Shown one piece after another: positions 1 through 44,054 of a DNA stretch of 64,000 bases. The stretch covers positions 64,001 through 128,000 of the forward strand of contig CBDASZ010000001.1 in the NCBI GenBank assembly GCA_965199755.1. The letters are read 5' to 3'. Each line of letters opens with the position of its first letter. Position 1 is the first letter of the stretch. A program made the position numbers and the translations under genes. The stretch is from an uncultured candidatus Porisulfidus sp. (GTDB taxonomy: Bacteria; Pseudomonadota; Gammaproteobacteria; Poriferisulfidales; Poriferisulfidaceae). The notes beneath the pieces were generated by a model. It ran no database searches. It was not told the DNA's origin and saw only the letters and a program-made list of their open reading frames with translations.

Positions 1-1976
1 AGTTTGGCTCCGGCTGCGTCAAGATCACGCCAGCGCATGACTTCAACGACTATCAGGTCGGCCAACGTCACCAGTTGGAGTTGCTGAATATCTTCACTGA
101 TGACGCACATCTGAATGACACGGTGCCGTCAGCGTATCGCGGCCTGAGTCGGGAGGAAGCGCGCACGTGCGTGCTGGAAGATCTCGACGCGCAAGGCGCG
201 CTTGTGAAAACCGAAGCGCATCGGCTGATGATCCCGCGCGGCGATCGCAGCGGTGCCATCGTGGAGCCTTATCTGACCAATCAATGGTACGTCCGGGCGC
301 AGCCTCTGGCGGAACCGGCCATGGCGGCGGTGCGGGATGGCCGCATTCGTTTCGTGCCGGAAAACTGGAGCCGAACCTATTTCGACTGGATGAAAAACAT
401 CGAAGACTGGTGCATCAGCCGGCAGTTGTGGTGGGGACACCGCATTCCGGCCTGGTACGACGCCGACGGCACGCCCTACGTCGGGCGCACGGTCGAGGAG
501 GTACGCGAGCGCCACGAATTATCCGAAGAGATCGAACTGAGGCAGGATGAGGACGTGCTGGATACCTGGTTTTCTTCCGCGCTGTGGCCGTTCTCGACAC
601 TGGGCTGGCCGCAAGACACGGAAGCGTTGCGGCGGTTTTATCCGACCAGTACTTTGGTGACCGGCTTTGACATTATTTTCTTCTGGGTCGCGCGCATGAT
701 CATGATGGGCATGCACTTCGTCGGGGAGGTGCCGTTTCGCGAAGTCTATGTACACGGACTGGTGCGCGACGCGCACGGACAGAAGATGTCCAAATCCAAA
801 GGCAACACCATTGATCCGATTGATGCCATTGACGGCATTGAGCAAGATGCCCTGATCGCCAAGCGAATCGGCGATCTGATCGACCCACGCCAAAGCAAGG
901 CGGTGACGCGCAGTACGCGCCAGGAATTCCCGGACGGCTTCCCGGCCGCCGGCACCGATGCCCTGCGTTTCTGTTTCGCCACTCAGGCGACGTTCGGGCG
1001 TGATGTGCGCTTTGAACTCCCGCGCGTGCTCGGCTATCGCAACTTCTGCAACAAGTTATGGAACGCGGCACGCTTCGCCCTGCTGCAGACAGATATGCCG
1101 AACTCCGATGAGCTGGCGGAGCCGAGCCTGATTGATCGCTGGATCCGACACCGGATGCAGAGCGTGACGAATGAGACAACCGAGCATCTGGAAGCCTACC
1201 GCTTTGATCTGGCCGCGCAGACCCTGTACGACTTCGTCTGGCACGACTTCTGCGACTGGTACCTGGAGTTGAGCAAGGCACAATTGCAACCGGACGTCGC
1301 GCCTGGTATTCGTCAGCGCAGCCGCGCGACCGTCATGGAGACGCTGGAGAGCATTCTGCGTCTGCTGCACCCGTTTATTCCATTTATCACCGAGGAGTTG
1401 TATCAGCAGTTGCCAACAACGGACGGGAGTAAGGATACGTTTCTGATGCTGCAGGACTGGCCGCAGGCCGCCGCGGCTGAGGAAAACGCCGACGTGCTTG
1501 ACACCATCGCCTGGATGCAGGAATTTATCAGCGGCATTCGCCGCACGCGTGCGGAAATGAATGTGGCACCTGGACGCCCGGTGCCGGTGCTGCTGGAGGA
1601 CTGGAATGCCACAGATCAGCAGCGCTTCGAACAAACCGAGGTCTGGATCCAAAGTCTGGCGAAACCTGAATCAATCCACTGGGTGGCGGCGGGTGAACCC
1701 ATCCCGGACGCGGCCACGGCGCTGGTCGGCTCCATGCGCCTGTTGATTCCGATGGCGGATCTGATTGACCCCGATGCGGAGCGGCAGCGGCTGCAGAAAG
1801 AACTGAAGAAACTCGACGGCGTCCTGCAGACCGCGCGTGCGAAACTCGACAATCAGCAGTTTCTGGATCGCGCACCTGAAGCGGTGGTCGCCAAAGAAAA
1901 GCGCCGGCTGGAAGATACCGAAGCGGCACGCGCACAACTGGCGCAGCAGCTAGAGAAAATCGCCACGCTCGACTAG
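1..1976 (+). CDS. valS: Valine--tRNA ligase, 5' end outside the window
   Basis: Frame is open from the window edge (FGSGCVKITPAHDFND); DWCISRQLWWGHRIP, VLDTWFSS and KMSKS motifs; C-terminal coiled coil. Confidence 0.97.
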   Translation, partial: FGSGCVKITPAHDFNDYQVGQRHQLELLNIFTDDAHLNDTVPSAYRGLSREEARTCVLEDLDAQGALVKTEAHRLMIPRGDRSGAIVEPYLTNQWYVRAQPLAEPAMAAVRDGRIRFVPENWSRTYFDWMKNIEDWCISRQLWWGHRIPAWYDADGTPYVGRTVEEVRERHELSEEIELRQDEDVLDTWFSSALWPFSTLGWPQDTEALRRFYPTSTLVTGFDIIFFWVARMIMMGMHFVGEVPFREVYVHGLVRDAHGQKMSKSKGNTIDPIDAIDGIEQDALIAKRIGDLIDPRQSKAVTRSTRQEFPDGFPAAGTDALRFCFATQATFGRDVRFELPRVLGYRNFCNKLWNAARFALLQTDMPNSDELAEPSLIDRWIRHRMQSVTNETTEHLEAYRFDLAAQTLYDFVWHDFCDWYLELSKAQLQPDVAPGIRQRSRATVMETLESILRLLHPFIPFITEELYQQLPTTDGSKDTFLMLQDWPQAAAAEENADVLDTIAWMQEFISGIRRTRAEMNVAPGRPVPVLLEDWNATDQQRFEQTEVWIQSLAKPESIHWVAAGEPIPDAATALVGSMRLLIPMADLIDPDAERQRLQKELKKLDGVLQTARAKLDNQQFLDRAPEAVVAKEKRRLEDTEAARAQLAQQLEKIATLD

Positions 1977-1990
1977 GCGCGCGGGCGAGA

Positions 1991-3904
1991 TCAGATCAGG
2001 GTCAGACCCAGTACGCCTTCCATCTTCTCCGCAGTCTCGGACTTGCCGGTGCGGCTGTCGCCGACCAGAGCAATGGTGACATCCACTTCCGTCGGAGCTT
2101 CGTTCTCAAAGCGCGCGCGCTTCTCCAGCGCGATTTCCTTGACCAGTTCAATCAGACCCTCGGCCAGACGCTCCGGGGCGATCTGCTCGATTTCTTCTCG
2201 ATTAGCAAACCCGCAGCGCGTGACATCATCGTCGCTGGTCCCTTCATAGACCCCTGACATCAACTGGCTGTAGGCCACTCCGATGCGCATCTCTCTGCGC
2301 TCAATCAGTGCGTCGATGTCTTTGATGAAAGTCGCTTCAGTCTCGCTGAACAATTCGTACAGGTCTTCGTGCAGCACTTCGCCAGCATTGTCGACCAGCG
2401 TCGGGAACGGATTGGCCCAGTAACTGGACTCTTTCTTGCCGCGGTGCGTCTGGGTGCTGCCAGCCGCCACGCGCTCACCCTTGCGGAAGTGATCAAGCGC
2501 TTCCTGCGCGGTCATGTCGGTATCGATGGTCACGGCCCCTTCTTCCTTGATGTCGTAGTTATTCACATACAGCAAAACGTCCAGAATGCTGCCGGTCGCG
2601 ACCTCGGATTCCTCAGCCACCGGTACCACCTGACGGGCATTTGAGCCCATGTGGTTGTTGTAGCCGATCTCTCGCCCTTGCATGGCCAGTTTGGCTTGCT
2701 CGCTAAAGCCGTCCAGACAGGCGAATGCGCCGATTTCAGTGCCATAGAAGATGGGGCGGCGCAGCGTGGTGCCGTCAATGCGCTCCAGTGCCGCACGGCC
2801 CATGTCGTCAGCCTTCACCAGCATTTCCGTGATGTACGGCTCGTCGCCCTCAAAGTTGACGATGTAGCGGGTGCAACCGCAATGCAGCGGCAGATCGCCG
2901 CAGCGAATGGCCAGAACATTGTGCAAGGTCAAAATGGGTTTCTTGCAGTAGCCGAAATACTTGTACTCATCGTGATTCGGCACCATGCCAATCAGCAACT
3001 GGTTCTCTCGATCCCAGTAGTAGCCCAGATCTTCTCCGAACGTCGCGTTCGGGTCGCCGAAGAAATACAGACCGTCCGGGCGCAGCGCCGGAAACGCCTG
3101 CTCGACGTCGGCGAACGGAAACAGGTTCAGCAAGCCCGGCTCCATTTCAATGCAGCCACGCGACTTGTGGATGAATGCGATGATCAGCCAGCGGCCCACC
3201 TGTAGCGGCACCGACACCCAGTCCTCCGGGTTGAAGTGCTCCATGTGCAGCGGGTTGTGCGGCAGTTCGTAGAACGGATAGGCGCGGCGGTTGGCCGGTG
3301 TGCGGTAATCCACTCCGGTGCGAATATCCGCCGCCATCGTCAGCGGCACATGACACAGCAGACCGTAATCCGGCGGCATGTTGCAGTAGTGCCCGGAAAT
3401 CTCGCCGGCAGTCACGTTTGGCGAGGCGTCCATGCCGGGTGTGCGGCGTACGCCGTAACCTAAGCCGACCTGCGACAGCAGGCGGCGGCGCGTCTCCAGT
3501 ATCAGATCGGTCAACTCCGCGGCCTTCTCGGTGACCTTATCCTTGATGCTCTCCTGGTTTTCGGTGCCGGAACTGACCACTTCGTTCTGCAGGCGCACCA
3601 GACGCGAGTAACTCTTGTTGCGGAAATGGTGGAAGCCGCCGTCGACGAACTTAACTACGGAGCGGGCGCGTTCCAACTCCTCCGGCGCAAAATGATTGTT
3701 GTCAAGAATGGACGCAATGTCACGCAAAGTGATGTTGCGAATCATTTCCGCCTTGTGCTGGGCTTCCGACTGATTTTTCTCGCGGTGCAGCAAATCGGCG
3801 ACAAATTCTTCTTTGTAAATTTTCAGGTAGCGCGCAAAAGCAAGACTGCGAAGCAATTGCTCCGGCGTATTGCACCCATCACGAATCTCAAGAATACCTT
3901 CCAT
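1991..3904 (-). CDS. PEP carboxykinase-like P-loop protein with rearranged motif order
   Basis: Motifs YFGYCKKPILTLHN, LPLH, DDMG, YGTEIGAF, NAR, SYWANPF; Walker A GDSRTGKSE lies at the extreme C-terminus. Confidence 0.7.
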   Translation of the reverse strand: MEGILEIRDGCNTPEQLLRSLAFARYLKIYKEEFVADLLHREKNQSEAQHKAEMIRNITLRDIASILDNNHFAPEELERARSVVKFVDGGFHHFRNKSYSRLVRLQNEVVSSGTENQESIKDKVTEKAAELTDLILETRRRLLSQVGLGYGVRRTPGMDASPNVTAGEISGHYCNMPPDYGLLCHVPLTMAADIRTGVDYRTPANRRAYPFYELPHNPLHMEHFNPEDWVSVPLQVGRWLIIAFIHKSRGCIEMEPGLLNLFPFADVEQAFPALRPDGLYFFGDPNATFGEDLGYYWDRENQLLIGMVPNHDEYKYFGYCKKPILTLHNVLAIRCGDLPLHCGCTRYIVNFEGDEPYITEMLVKADDMGRAALERIDGTTLRRPIFYGTEIGAFACLDGFSEQAKLAMQGREIGYNNHMGSNARQVVPVAEESEVATGSILDVLLYVNNYDIKEEGAVTIDTDMTAQEALDHFRKGERVAAGSTQTHRGKKESSYWANPFPTLVDNAGEVLHEDLYELFSETEATFIKDIDALIERREMRIGVAYSQLMSGVYEGTSDDDVTRCGFANREEIEQIAPERLAEGLIELVKEIALEKRARFENEAPTEVDVTIALVGDSRTGKSETAEKMEGVLGLTLI

Positions 3905-4035
3905 TTAATAGCTCTCTACTGTCTCAGCAGTATCAAATACGGAAGCGCAATTTTACTCTATGGCATATATGCGGGTTATGACACCCGGAAAGCGAAGTAT
4001 TTTTGGGTGCGTGGCATCCGCGCCGCGCCGCTCAC

Positions 4036-5493
4036 TCAGGCGTGATGCGCTCCGGGGTCGTGCTCATACACCGGATGCGCTGTTTCTTCCTCGCTGAGAG
4101 TCATGCCCAGCATGCGCCCGACGAAATAGACCAGCAACCCGGTCGCAAATCCGCCCAGACCTTCGTAGAATCTGCCCAGCTGGGGCACCGTGAGCCACAG
4201 CAACACAAACACCGCGCCCGACAGCGCCATGGCGATCACCAGCGCCTGATTCGGTCGCCCGCCTAAAGAATAAACCAGCAGCAAGGGCGTAAATACCGAG
4301 CCCATCACAGACCACGCCATAATCACCAGAGAAAATACGCTTTTGCTCCCGGACAACGCGATACCGAGCGCGATGAGCGTGATGATGACGGTGCCGGTTC
4401 GCACCACAATCAGCGGCAGACGATCGCTCGGAACCAGATCATCAGTCAGGTTGGCCGCGCTGCTGAGGATCAGTGAGTCGGCGGTCGAAATCGTGGCCGC
4501 AAAAATACCCGCCAGCACTATCCCGACCAGAACCGGTGGAAGCAGGTCAACCGAAATGGTCGCCAGGGCCAGTTCGGCGTCAAACAGGACATCCGGCGGC
4601 AGCAGCACGCGCGTCATCAGACCCACGGCCATGGCCACACAATTGAAAGTGAGCGACCAGCCATAGTAATAGGCGCGCGCTTTATTGATGTTCTTCACGT
4701 CATCCAGAGCCATGAAGCGCACCATGATGTGCGGCTGGCCGGGCGTACAGAACCCGCCTATGAACCAGCCGCCTGCGAACAGCACCGGTCCCCAGGCACC
4801 AAACGGAAGATCCGGCTGGAACCAGTCCATGTGCGTTGGAGAGACCGCTTCAAGGCGCTCCCATGCCGCTGCCACACCACCGAGCGCATCGAAAGCCATG
4901 TACACCAGCAACAACATCGACAGCATCATGATGATGGACTGCAGCGCATCCGTCCAGATGGACGCGCGCAAACCGCCGCCCCAGCAATAACTGATGATGA
5001 TGGCCGCACCAATGACGGCACCAACATACGTCTCCCAGCCAAACAACACATGCAGCGCCTTGCTGCCAGCCACAAACTGCGCAGCCGCGTAGGTGCACAG
5101 GAAAATCAGTGAGATAAATCCGGCGATATGCCGGTAGAGCCGAAAATCCGTGTTGTTCCAGTGACTGAGCACGCCGACGAAGGTCTCGGCGCGTCCGGGC
5201 GAAGTCGCACTGCGCAGACGCCGGTGAATAATGGTGGATGCCATGTAATCGCCAAACGTCCAGCCGATGACCAGCCAGAAGGTCGGCAAGCCGACCAGAT
5301 AGGAAAATCCGATCAGCCCGGTGAACATGAAGCCGCTGTTGCAGGTCGCGCCTGCTGACAAGCCAGCCAGCCACGGTGCGGTATCCTGATTCGACAGCAG
5401 ATAGTCTCGATGCGTGTGGCGGGAATGCAACCGAGCGGTGAACCCGACTAGCAAGAACAGCCCAAGAAAGAACAGGAACGAAGCGACAATCAT
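4036..5493 (-). CDS. Sodium:solute symporter (PutP-like, proline)
   Basis: 485-aa polytopic membrane protein with GGLRASIWTD, GQPHIMVRFMA and AATISTADS SSS motifs. Confidence 0.88.
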   Translation of the reverse strand: MIVASFLFFLGLFLLVGFTARLHSRHTHRDYLLSNQDTAPWLAGLSAGATCNSGFMFTGLIGFSYLVGLPTFWLVIGWTFGDYMASTIIHRRLRSATSPGRAETFVGVLSHWNNTDFRLYRHIAGFISLIFLCTYAAAQFVAGSKALHVLFGWETYVGAVIGAAIIISYCWGGGLRASIWTDALQSIIMMLSMLLLVYMAFDALGGVAAAWERLEAVSPTHMDWFQPDLPFGAWGPVLFAGGWFIGGFCTPGQPHIMVRFMALDDVKNINKARAYYYGWSLTFNCVAMAVGLMTRVLLPPDVLFDAELALATISVDLLPPVLVGIVLAGIFAATISTADSLILSSAANLTDDLVPSDRLPLIVVRTGTVIITLIALGIALSGSKSVFSLVIMAWSVMGSVFTPLLLVYSLGGRPNQALVIAMALSGAVFVLLWLTVPQLGRFYEGLGGFATGLLVYFVGRMLGMTLSEEETAHPVYEHDPGAHHA

Positions 5494-41660: not shown

Positions 41661-41691
41661 CCCTTGAAATTGGGACCACTCACTCCCATTA
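41661..41691 (+). promoter_or_regulatory. Sigma-32 (RpoH) heat-shock promoter
   Basis: CCCTTGAAA and CCCATTA about 15 bp apart upstream of hsp20, matching the RpoH consensus. Confidence 0.75.
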
Positions 41692-41762
41692 AAAGAGTAA
41701 GGAAACAGGGCTGGCACCCATGGTGCGAGACCTGTACAACAACTACCAGTAAGGAGGGAATA

Positions 41763-42200
41763 ATGATATTTCCAAACATTTACACCGATCCTTTCGGTGC
41801 CTTAACCCGAAACTGGGGTACGCTGTTTCAGGGTACCCCTTCTGGCCTGTATTCGTCCGGGAACGGCTGGACGGTGCTGGTCGACATTGCCGACCACAGC
41901 GATGCCTACACGATTACCGCCGACTTGCCGGGAGTGAACCCCGATGATGTCACAATCTCGGTGGATGGCGATATCCTGAAAGTCACGGGCGAGCGTGCCA
42001 CTCCGAAAGCGACCGCTGATGAGGGGCCGCGCTACTACCACATGGAGCGAGGGCACGGTGCCTTTGAGCGGCGCTTCCAGTTGCCTGCGAACGTTGATGC
42101 GGACGCGATTGAGGCGCACTTTAACAAGGGCGTTTTGAGCATCCGAATCGCCAAGCAGCCTGAGGCTGCGCCGCGGAGTATCACGGTTCAGGTCAACTGA
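41763..42200 (+). CDS. Hsp20/alpha-crystallin small heat shock protein
   Basis: ADLPGV, ERGHGAFERRFQLP, GVLSI.I.K. Confidence 0.93.
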   Translation: MIFPNIYTDPFGALTRNWGTLFQGTPSGLYSSGNGWTVLVDIADHSDAYTITADLPGVNPDDVTISVDGDILKVTGERATPKATADEGPRYYHMERGHGAFERRFQLPANVDADAIEAHFNKGVLSIRIAKQPEAAPRSITVQVN

Positions 42201-42220
42201 TCGGCATACCTACCTGCCTG

Positions 42221-42256
42221 CGGGCTCGTCGAAGCGATTCGGCGAGCCCGTTTTTT
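42221..42256 (+). terminator. Rho-independent terminator after hsp20
   Basis: cgggctcgtcgaa-gcga-ttcggcgagcccg followed by T6. Confidence 0.9.
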
Positions 42257-42402
42257 GTGAGAAACTCAATGACGTAAATATGCGCCCTATCAACCCAGAA
42301 CTGCTCACTGACTATGATATATTTCCAGCAATAACTCCAAGAACAGTACTAGCCCTTAGTTTGATGTTCGACACCGCTAAATCCGACCCAAACTTAACAG
42401 GA

Positions 42403-42813
42403 TCACTTTATGAGAATCGCAAACCTTTCCTGTTCGAAGTGATGATCGCTTGATAGAACCTCTTCTATGGAGTTCTCCTCCATGACAATCATGGAAATAC
42501 AGTCTTGCATGCTATATTTCTTGTCAGGCCGTTCCTTGTAACGTTTTAAACCTTTCATTAGAAGATCGTGGGTTTGCGGAACAACCCTGACGTTTGCATC
42601 TTCAAAAACGTTTTGTACTATCTTCACTCCATACTCGCGCAAGTCAGAGCCGAGATTTGAAAGGCCGGTCAGAAACTCTACCAGCACCGTCTCAGTAGTC
42701 ATCACCTTAACCTGTCCCAAGGCAGCGAATGCCTGCTCCGCCGCTTTATGCCATTGATCTTGGGGGTTGGCGATGGCGACCCAATATGAAGTATCTGCGA
42801 AAACAGTTTTCAC
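42403..42813 (-). CDS. vapC: PIN-domain (VapC-type) ribonuclease toxin
   Basis: VFADTSYW, VLVE, YSMQDCIS, SSDHHF acidic PIN motifs. Confidence 0.88.
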   Translation of the reverse strand: MKTVFADTSYWVAIANPQDQWHKAAEQAFAALGQVKVMTTETVLVEFLTGLSNLGSDLREYGVKIVQNVFEDANVRVVPQTHDLLMKGLKRYKERPDKKYSMQDCISMIVMEENSIEEVLSSDHHFEQERFAILIK

Positions 42814-43721
42814 ACTTTGTCAGTTCCATAGATGTAATGGTCATGCTGGTGTGACAAATCTGTAGGCACTTTCTCCCATGCCTTCTCAGGAACTTTCTTG
42901 GAAAGATCCAAGACAACATCCTGAATACTGGGAACGTTAGGATCAAAACTGTCTCCTCCGGCAGGCTCAATTTTCAGCCACTCTACATTGTTAATTCTTT
43001 TTAGTGCTCCGTCCGGACCATACTCTCCGCACCCTCTAACGCGCAACTGTACAGACGCATAACCTATGAGCGCTTTGATGACGTCTGACTCTTGAGTGTC
43101 CGAGAACTCCACCTGCACATTCACTTTATCGTCTAACCAAATGTGAAAACATTTTCTGTGAACATCCACCACCAATACGCGACCAGTTATTTCCAACTCA
43201 TCTATATACGCGCTCCCTGAAGATTCAGCGAATCTTTGGCGCGCCTTCGAAGAAACAGGTGTCATTTCCTGATCAGGCGGTGCCAACTGCATCTCCGCGT
43301 CATCTGGCAACTTTTTCCCTAGCGGCACTAAATGAGACAGCATTTCTTTCGTGATGCCTTTAGGAAAAAGTTTCTCATTTTCAGCGGATTTAAGTGCTTG
43401 GTAGATCAAAGAGACCGACTCATCCACCAGCTCATGGTCTTCAAAAATCTCGCGTTGCCCCGAATTATCTCGCATTAATTCAAATGGAATAGTAGTGCTT
43501 CCCACTTCAATTCTCTTAATGACAAGTTTGGTGTGCTCATCAAAACTTTTAGGCAAGCGATCAGAGCCCGGATGGCGTCTCTTCCAGACAATCTTCGCCA
43601 TCTCCGAGACAATTTTCTGAAATCGCATCAGTTCTTCGAGGGCGCACGAATCAAGTGCACACTCGTCGTAGTGCGCGCCCTTAAAACGCAAGCACGCAAC
43701 TTCTCGCTTTTGATCGCTCAT
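42810..43721 (-). CDS. Uncharacterised 303-aa protein with C-terminal antitoxin-like peptide
   Basis: Clean low-GC ORF; ends PTDLSHQHDHYIYG; 4-bp GTGA overlap with the PIN gene. Confidence 0.75.
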   Translation of the reverse strand: MSDQKREVACLRFKGAHYDECALDSCALEELMRFQKIVSEMAKIVWKRRHPGSDRLPKSFDEHTKLVIKRIEVGSTTIPFELMRDNSGQREIFEDHELVDESVSLIYQALKSAENEKLFPKGITKEMLSHLVPLGKKLPDDAEMQLAPPDQEMTPVSSKARQRFAESSGSAYIDELEITGRVLVVDVHRKCFHIWLDDKVNVQVEFSDTQESDVIKALIGYASVQLRVRGCGEYGPDGALKRINNVEWLKIEPAGGDSFDPNVPSIQDVVLDLSKKVPEKAWEKVPTDLSHQHDHYIYGTDKV

Positions 43722-43977
43722 GATATAAACTCCATAAGGCGTAAGGCTTTGAGTTCCAGGAACATCTATAAGCCAACATTAACCTTGGATAGAGCATAAG
43801 ATTATATACAAGAGAGGGAAGTCCTGCGTGTGAAATTGCCGAAAAAATTAATAATAGATAGACTCTTCCAGAGTATTCTTTTTGCAGAAGATTATTCTGC
43901 AAAAGTCAACAGAAAAGACTGCGTGTTAAGAATTAAATCTCCCTCATCCCGTAAAATGGCGTCCCAATTCCCGGTAT

Positions 43978-44054
43978 CGGAGTGTAGCTCAGCCTGGTAG
44001 AGCGCTGCCTTCGGGAGGCAGAGGCCGGAGGTTCAAGTCCTCTCACTCCGACCA
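43978..44054 (+). tRNA. tRNA-Pro (CGG)
   Basis: CGGAGTG/CACTCCG acceptor stem, anticodon arm ctgcc-ttCGGga-ggcag, GTTCAAG T-loop, encoded CCA. Confidence 0.96.

Follow-up and report, generated by a model that had tools for sequence, protein, structure and literature searches.

The head of an ordinary VapB antitoxin is a small domain for DNA binding or dimerisation, for example AbrB, RHH, Phd or HTH. Another antitoxin-associated head, the Panacea domain, corresponds to DUF4065. In multidomain PanA antitoxins, neutralisation of the toxin is the task of a short C-terminal element, and a sensor role has been proposed for the globular domain (Ernits et al. 2023, PMC10440598). A separate article (PMC4963859) counts DUF2281-PIN pairs of Synechocystis among toxin-antitoxin (TA) pairs. 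The PDC systems, according to the Payne preprint (bioRxiv 10.1101/2024.01.29.577857), are untested candidates whose genes were picked out by their embedding in BREX, DISARM and type I restriction-modification (R-M) loci, and another study places DUF6575 among the domains of 21 validated phage-defense (PD) systems (Vassallo et al. 2022, PMC9519451). Here a two-gene module is described that shares features with VapBC, PDC-M32 and Panacea. It occupies positions 42403 to 43721 of a 64,000-nucleotide (nt) stretch of DNA, called the window below, from an uncultured Candidatus Porisulfidus sp. (assembly GCA_965199755.1, contig CBDASZ010000001.1, positions 64,001 to 128,000 of the forward strand). The module encodes a 303-residue multidomain protein, named A, and a PIN-domain protein. 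A is very probably the antitoxin of this VapC-like PIN protein, with the C-terminal tail of A doing the neutralising. We also lean, with less assurance, towards reading the pair as a VapBC-type TA module in which the large head of A takes no part in neutralisation and serves in regulation or sensing, defense being its likely role.

Both genes lie on the reverse strand. Gene A (42810..43721, stop codon included) comes first and encodes the head and the tail, and the PIN gene (42403..42813) encodes a 136-residue, VapC20-like putative toxin. The TGA stop of A and the GTG start of the PIN gene share bases 42810-42813 (reverse strand) in the context ...GAC AAA GTG TGA AAA..., an arrangement of translational coupling. 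This GTGA overlap had been pointed out in an original prediction made from the sequence alone, which also took the downstream gene for a PIN nuclease; the sequence confirms the former, and the latter agrees with a match to PF01850 above the cut-off (E 1e-7, 33 bits against 23.6 bits) and with the retention of the acidic residues. In an alignment of 57 PIN orthologues, D7, D19, E46, D97 and D104 never vary and D123 reaches at least 90% conservation, so that the canonical acidic quartet of D7, E46, D104 and D123 is intact. The nearest solved chain to the 57-sequence profile is Mycobacterium tuberculosis VapC20 (5wzf, E 6e-17), which its depositors named a 23S rRNA-specific endonuclease, and the second match is Archaeoglobus fulgidus AF_1683 (E 2e-4). 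Judged from its sequence, the PIN protein is a putative, catalytically intact RNase of the VapC20 lineage. Its target is likely to be rRNA or tRNA, of which rRNA is suggested because of the kinship with VapC20.

The tail of A (residues 259-298; 42828..42947, reverse strand) was delimited by conservation, modularity and a predicted interface. The last ~45 residues of A are conserved throughout the family. The motif [VL]P.D[LG][SA]..[LH]DHY[LI]YG is invariant in the first four relatives and nearly so among 88, and the conserved residues are P286, D288, D294, H295, Y296 and Y298. When the best 150 of the 2901 cluster representatives from a profile search were examined by a hidden Markov model (HMM) census of their architecture, the tail was present in 138 and the full layout of N-terminal domain (N-domain), OB fold and tail in 135.

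The tail was also found on many other proteins. A scan of one genome per species across a collection with a stated size of 185,579 species, using two peptide patterns from a 4-row alignment, left 80 related loci. By HMM census, these comprise 17 proteins with N-domain, OB fold and tail, 9 with OB fold and tail, 53 with the tail on other proteins, and 1 miscalled open reading frame (ORF). The Pfam heads recognised on 38 small tail-bearing proteins were DUF2281 (5 proteins), ParD_antitoxin (3), and TacA1, HTH_37, AF2212-like, MazE_antitoxin, PhdYeFM, NikA-like and ParD (1 each), which together make up the classical set of type II antitoxin heads. A VMAP-M1 match on 2 of the 38 (E 0.001) was absent from a targeted scan of 10 proteins and was dropped. 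In 66 of the 80 loci, a six-frame search with the PIN HMM located a PIN-family gene on the same strand that starts between -60 and +400 nt from the end of the tail; the 14 loci without it include one (L067) that keeps only 154 nt beyond the tail match. In 16 of the 17 full-length loci, the tail is followed by a PIN orthologue, for which phmmer gave E 6e-32 to 8e-48 with the PIN protein of the window, and the 4-nt overlap between the two genes recurs in most of the related loci.

One tail-bearing protein is much larger than the others described here. On the chromosome of a Candidatus Latescibacterota metagenome-assembled genome (MAG; OZ244744.1, locus L043), a 974-residue N6_N4 DNA methylase (1196-4117, forward strand) ends in the same PIN-cognate tail and is followed, with a 4-nt overlap, by a PIN orthologue (4117-4533, forward strand, phmmer E 8e-46). 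The methylase looks like a protein that is guarded by, or leashes, a PIN RNase.

In sister species, the head attached to the tail differs at one and the same locus. Matches were found in 3 of the 15 same-genus genomes, and all of them lie between a 5S rRNA gene and a birA-like gene. Two of these genomes (G004 and G012) encode a large-head protein of 297-312 residues together with PIN. The third (G002) encodes a 97-residue protein with a MazE/AbrB head (PF04014, E 4e-7), the same tail and an orthologous PIN protein. The DNA homology of G002 to G004 and G012 begins exactly at the start of the tail-coding region and continues through the spacer, the PIN gene and beyond, and the sequences upstream are unrelated. 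The recombination breakpoint is located at the start of the tail-coding region, and the head has been swapped in situ. The gene with the MazE/AbrB head is at 1501-1794 (reverse strand) of L005, versus 1498-2436 (reverse strand) of L003 and 1501-2394 (forward strand) of L004 for the genes with a PDC-M32A-type head.

A complex between PIN and A residues 250-303 was predicted with an ipSAE of 0.85, compared with 0.00 for the best of 3 controls, above a pass mark that is reached by 58 of 80 solved complexes and by 2 of 110 mismatched pairs. Three runs agreed in at least 96% of the contacts, and the pLDDT of the partner was at least 76. The interface is formed by A residues 259-298 and by PIN residues 8-22, 25-26, 29-30, 34, 37, 46, 49-51, 54-55, 57-58, 61, 64-65, 68-69, 72-75, 101 and 122-123, of which residues 8, 46, 101 and 122-123 are beside the catalytic D7, E46, D104 and D123. 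The model supports the view that the tail binds PIN and covers its active site. Its score is the confidence that the model gives to itself, and since VapBC complexes as a class are solved in the PDB, likeness may account for part of the pass; against this, a profile of the tail gave no match among solved PDB chains. The last ~40 residues of A had originally been likened to antitoxins, and this is now strongly supported by their conservation, the many antitoxin heads that precede them elsewhere, the PIN gene in 66 of 80 loci, the in-situ swap and the complex model. The C-terminal ~45 residues of A are thus strongly supported as an antitoxin-type, PIN-cognate tail.

The head of A was modeled with AlphaFold2 as part of the whole protein. 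The model (pLDDT 91.7, pTM 0.73, from an 88-row alignment) contains an alpha/beta N-domain (residues 1-170; 43212..43721, reverse strand), a barrel of five strands in which a helix stands between the third and the fourth (residues 172-253; 42963..43208, reverse strand), and the three short helices of the tail. When the whole model was compared with the PDB by Foldseek, only weak OB folds were matched (RPA, the LysRS N-domain and IF1, best E 8e-3), which were used solely to name the fold. The N-domain modeled alone reached a pLDDT of 88.8 and a pTM of 0.86, and Foldseek returned nothing better than E 0.06 with a TM of about 0.2 in the PDB; the proteasome alpha subunits and IS200-type transposases in that range were not considered meaningful. 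A match to PDB chain 9hnh_A (E 2e-4 to 2e-3) aligns as three repeats of an LPEE-rich motif and is compositional. No family was assigned to A in Pfam, NCBIfam or PHROGs, with no Pfam match at E<=1, and an NCBIfam dnl1 match was dismissed (E 0.1, 11 bits against a 218-bit cut-off). Three features that had been proposed from the sequence alone thus hold up, namely a large extension before the tail (~250 residues, made up of the N-domain and the OB fold), a beta-rich and possibly OB-like domain within it, for which the barrel and the weak OB matches speak, and the lack of an evident DNA-binding domain, no classical one being present by Pfam, NCBIfam and PHROGs.

The family of A is large. The profile search retrieved 2901 cluster representatives at E<=1e-3, of which 323 reach E<=1e-30, with clusters made at 50% identity and spread over many phyla, and the two genes are therefore no chance pair of ORFs. 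A word-index homology search had given 3 relatives only and understated the family, which was corrected by this exhaustive profile search.

The head of A is related to that of PDC-M32A. Residues 6-251 of A match positions 4-252 of the 375 positions of the PADLOC PDC-M32A model (E 1.7e-33). A true PDC-M32A of 385 residues (P0150) matches the model over positions 4-370 (E 7e-101) and has a C-terminus different from that of A. On a Limnohabitans plasmid, the gene for such a 401-residue A protein overlaps that for a 139-residue B protein (PDC-M32B, E 1.4e-49, no Pfam family), and a similar PDC-M32 pair of A and B is present on a Rhodococcus plasmid. PDC-M32B is unrelated to the PIN profile (hhalign probability below 1%), and PDC-M32B (PDLC04578) was not found in the source genome of the window. 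In another protein (P0124), the same head is joined to a nucleotidyltransferase (the MNT fusion; NTP_transf_2 E 2e-3, below the cut-off, and PADLOC PDC-S09 E 2e-10). The OB fold and tail also occur without the N-domain, in 9 of the 80 loci. Because the head occurs on different C-terminal parts with different partners, it is a portable unit and independent of the toxin. The Limnohabitans pair lies on plasmid pTEGF4 (L090, 2273-7836) in an annotated TA cluster, with two RelE/ParE genes and one vapBC pair within 4 kb.

A more distant lead concerns DUF6575. The Foldseek search with the whole A model matched three viral proteins (E 4e-10, 2e-9 and 1.6e-8), which belong to Leptospira phage LE1, to a Myoviridae contig and to a DUF6575-labelled protein, the last with E 1.6e-8. 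In a structure atlas, DUF6575 is the nearest named cluster to A (score 0.83). Profiles of the A head and of DUF6575 proteins gave an hhalign probability of 8.9% and hmmsearch E values of 0.004-0.02, with a collinear match C-terminal to the Pfam DUF6575 region. This weak link is kept as a lead only. One DUF6575 protein (L100, 1092-3456, genome G317) is a 433-residue ORF flanked by an overlapping 132-residue ORF upstream and a 243-residue ORF downstream, and in its C-terminal half it shows weak collinearity with the A head.

Compared with VapBC, the module has a PIN toxin with four acidic residues, an antitoxin gene placed upstream with a 4-nt overlap, and a C-terminal antitoxin peptide that is predicted to lie over the PIN active site. 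The tail of A is also carried by MazE/AbrB, Phd, ParD, TacA, HTH and DUF2281 heads. In contrast to ordinary antitoxins of about 70-100 residues, A has 303, and the DNA-binding head is replaced by the N-domain, for which no solved relative was found, and the OB fold. The small DNA-binding or dimerising N-terminus of the AbrB, RHH, Phd or HTH kind is missing from A.

Similarity to PDC-M32 is found in the head of A, which matches PDC-M32A, in the two overlapping genes with the larger one first, and in the location of some relatives inside type I R-M operons. The two systems differ in that positions 253-375 of PDC-M32A are absent from A and replaced by the PIN tail, and in that the partner is PIN instead of PDC-M32B. 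In the window there is no full-length PDC-M32A, no adjacent PDC-M32B and no embedding in a BREX, DISARM or type I R-M locus. Since the C-terminal part of PDC-M32A and PDC-M32B are both absent, the A-PIN pair is a variant and not a member of PDC-M32.

The resemblance to Panacea is one of logic only. In that system, a globular head is common to systems with different toxins, a short toxin-specific C-terminal element is the neutraliser, and the head is hypothesised to be a sensor; the C-terminal elements there are Phd-C, PAD1 or ZFD, in place of the DHYLYG tail of A. No sequence relationship was found, as A has no Pfam match and thus no Panacea domain at E<=1, and the fold of its head is an N-domain plus OB fold. 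The known partner spectrum of the head of A is also much narrower, comprising PIN, PDC-M32B and the MNT fusion. The DUF6575 proteins differ from A-PIN as well, because they have neither the tail nor PIN and their similarity to A falls outside the Pfam DUF6575 region.

No published description of the A-PIN pair was found in a literature search that covered neither the supplementary tables of the Payne preprint nor those of Vassallo et al. Searches by title or abstract gave no OB-fold VapB antitoxin with PIN, and, among the matches listed, no A-PIN pair in work on TA or PIN modules embedded in type I R-M loci. The literature naming PDC-M32 consisted of one listing of PADLOC hits. The original prediction had allowed that the pair might be an already described system. 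This applies to the head family, which is catalogued as the untested candidate PDC-M32A, and does not apply to the pairing of tail and PIN, which is not PDC-M32. A-PIN is a widespread, unnamed variant in which a head of the PDC-M32A type is combined with a VapB-type leash for a PIN protein resembling VapC20, and it is neither the described PDC-M32 nor a textbook VapBC.

The module was acquired horizontally. It had been described as an AT-rich two-gene unit between an hsp20 terminator and tRNA-Pro, and the G+C bins, the ORFs, ARAGORN and the terminator scan confirm this. The left flank consists of the ORF of the small heat-shock protein hsp20 (41664..42200, forward strand; PDB sequence search E 1.3e-19) and its terminator-like hairpin (42220..42251, forward strand), and the right flank is tRNA-Pro(cgg) (43978..44054, forward strand). 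The G+C content is 0.43-0.47 in the bins of 42200-43999, compared with 0.54-0.64 in the flanks. In 5 of the 7 same-genus relatives' loci that were compared, hsp20 and tRNA-Pro are separated by only 73-136 nt, and their alignment with the window breaks off near 42200-42205 and starts again near 43947-43973. From the short gap and the break and resumption of homology, the module is an insertion of ~1.75 kb peculiar to the source genome, and the AT-rich inserted segment spans 42206..43972. Upstream of A, the segment contains an inverted repeat whose 10-nt arms match perfectly around a 5-nt spacer (43880..43904, repeat scan I16), which is a candidate operator; no consensus promoter was found in a sigma-70 scan. 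A 26-nt direct repeat downstream of the PIN stop (42363-42388) and at the 3' end of tRNA-Pro (44028-44053) was rejected as an att remnant, as it is on the wrong side for 3'-end integration, no integrase is present and the identity is low (73%); it is probably due to chance.

The source genome (1.39 Mb, 4 contigs) also contains a second, decayed copy of the module (contig C1 of genome G000, about position 309000; L006 1309-1611, forward strand, with the downstream part reaching to about 1700). This copy has a 100-residue ORF in which a remnant of the OB domain is fused to a tail that is still intact. The PIN frame behind it is truncated: the first ~22 conserved residues are retained, the sequence diverges from there on, and the frame ends after 38 codons. 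Its DNA is 78% identical to 42746-42893 of the window.

Contigs from sequencing runs point to variation within the population. A contig path that is either a minority or an alternative one was seen in two DNA runs of one study (X3 and X4); it leads from 42455 directly to 43804, skipping 1348 nt (42456..43803) and carrying 12 other letters instead, which removes A and all of the PIN gene except its last 53 nt. The depth of this path was 3.1 and 9.3 in X3 and X4, respectively, versus about 6-7 for the path bearing the module, and unitigs break at both module ends. This suggests that strains with and without the module coexist as a presence/absence polymorphism, for which the joint is a hint rather than a proof because its shorter side has only 30 letters. 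Contigs from RNA libraries of a different study (X5 and X6) cover parts of A, with DNA carry-over possible, and two of them (42678-42924 and 42754-43025, depth 2-5) bridge the A/PIN junction. The uncovered parts of the module and the low depths are uninformative, and the contigs show no single transcript.

The analyses in silico show the architecture, the conservation, the coupling of tail and PIN, the swapping of domains and the horizontal acquisition; toxicity, neutralisation in cells, the kind of trigger and the defense role are inferred. How the two proteins may work together can be proposed as follows. The three short helices of the tail, which end in the conserved motif P.D[LG]S..[LH]DHY[LI]YG, would wrap around PIN, reach its acidic catalytic pocket and keep PIN inactive. 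The ~250-residue head of N-domain and OB fold would stand in for the usual small DNA-binding head. It would not itself neutralise the toxin, as suggested by its being joined elsewhere to other C-terminal parts with other partners (PDC-M32B, the MNT fusion), and would instead control the timing of tail release or of A degradation. The head may act in sensing or regulation, with a cue from a phage, for example a nucleic acid bound by the OB fold, as the most plausible signal, and release of PIN would then lead to abortive infection. The original prediction had likewise proposed a sensor-antitoxin fusion that frees the RNase on a trigger such as a phage protein, and this part of it remains an inference. 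By analogy, this sensor and defense reading of the head is a plausible parallel to the proposal made for Panacea. The sensor role is more plausible because the head is shared with PDC-M32A, because some relatives lie in type I R-M operons and because Panacea offers a precedent.

The genomic neighbors of the relatives were inspected for defense genes. Among 96 ORFs at the 16 PIN-linked full-length loci, the commonest Pfam families were EcoEI_R_C, ResIII and DUF5362, each recognised 3 times, and N6_Mtase, Eco57I, HEPN, Methylase_S, SWI2_SNF2 and the ABC-2 transporter families 2 times each; PADLOC found type I specificity subunits in 3 cases. As this census had no matched random control, no statistical enrichment is claimed. 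By tblastn over all 80 loci, type I R-M genes adjoin 4 of the 17 full-length loci (L018, L023, L024 and L033), 0 of the 9 loci with OB fold and tail and 2 of the 53 with the tail only, a comparison that is biased since its queries were taken from the full-length class. In L023 (9-6927, an uncultured betaproteobacterium MAG), the order is hsdR-hsdS-A-PIN-hsdM, the gene after PIN coding for an NPPF-motif methylase. With hsdS on one side, this methylase gene on the other and hsdR upstream, A-PIN is thus nested within a type I R-M operon. The arrangement is similar in L024 and L033.

Several observations weigh against a sensor and defense role. PDC-M32A, which shares the head, is itself an untested candidate, and the PIN protein had no match among PADLOC models at E<=1. 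Many single housekeeping families are listed among the 96 neighbor ORFs as well, and 13 of the 17 full-length loci have no type I R-M neighbor by tblastn. Three of the four R-M-linked loci are from betaproteobacterial MAGs, two of them with near-identical N-termini of A. In the window, the neighbors of the module are hsp20 and tRNA-Pro and not defense genes. A search of 50,697 phage records gave no match to A or PDC-M32A, and 72,556 plasmids gave only two partial matches to A. Furthermore, since the head stands in situ where other proteins have a DNA-binding one, and since nucleic acid can be bound by an OB fold, the most economical reading of the swap is that the head likewise binds the operator and dimerises, and does not sense a trigger.

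In the chief rival explanation, which we regard as rather unlikely, A-PIN is a plain addiction or stabilisation TA module and the head is only autoregulatory, dimerising and binding operator DNA or the mRNA of the module in the manner of AbrB, RHH or Phd heads, with no sensing or defense. The head takes the position of MazE/AbrB at the same locus in a sister species, its OB fold is a nucleic-acid-binding fold, and the perfect inverted repeat upstream of A could be its operator. The scarcity of R-M neighbors and the common housekeeping ones fit such a module, and so does behavior typical of a selfish cassette, namely the insertion, the decayed second copy and the presence/absence variation. However, 250 residues in two domains far exceed what operator binding needs, and no DNA-binding family was detected in A by Pfam or NCBIfam. 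The tail is also found on DUF2281 and AF2212-like heads and on the 974-residue methylase, which are not obvious repressors, and the head family was picked up through its embedding in defense loci.

In a further scheme, which we consider improbable, the head would have an activity or a partner of its own and the tail would tether PIN to it as a dead-man switch, so that a phage product that inactivates, sequesters or degrades the head frees PIN; the methylase-tail fusion would work alike. This guard arrangement gains from the tail being appended to an N6_N4 DNA methylase that is followed by PIN (L043), from the module lying between hsdS and hsdM in L023, and from the fusion of the head to unrelated C-terminal parts. 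It loses from the head containing no enzymatic motif or family that could be found, and it is indistinguishable from the sensor model on present data. That the pair is an inactive relic, intact in sequence with its function lost, is very unlikely because both frames are intact and all catalytic and tail residues are conserved. The small genome of 1.39 Mb, the decay of the second copy and the contigs without the module in two DNA runs are the points in its favor, against which stand also the RNA-library contigs of two runs, which extend over parts of A and across the A/PIN junction, with DNA carry-over possible.

The reading we prefer remains a VapBC-type TA module whose head has a regulatory or sensory function. 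A bolder form of it can be put forward tentatively. The N-domain and OB head would be a new portable infection sensor, Panacea-like, that holds unrelated toxins through swappable C-terminal adaptors (PIN, PDC-M32B and probably a HEPN toxin through the MNT fusion) and frees them when the OB fold or the N-domain engages phage nucleic acid or protein. On this view, the DHYLYG tail would act as a PIN leash of general use, attached in evolution to more than 10 kinds of protein including a DNA methylase, and would turn them into guarded tripwires.

If the preferred reading is correct, a large family (323 clusters at 50% identity and E<=1e-30, in many phyla), which is now annotated as hypothetical and half-recognised by PADLOC, would gain a testable architecture, in which a leash-like peptide silences a PIN RNase and is attached to a head that lacks a solved relative and also serves other toxin partners. 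The Panacea-type logic of a sensor head plus a short neutralising element would extend to a second, unrelated head. It would also give a function to the candidate PDC-M32A and explain the PIN modules inside type I R-M operons. The tail could also be used as a sequence marker in searches for proteins guarded by a PIN, whatever their size, of which the methylase fusion is an example.

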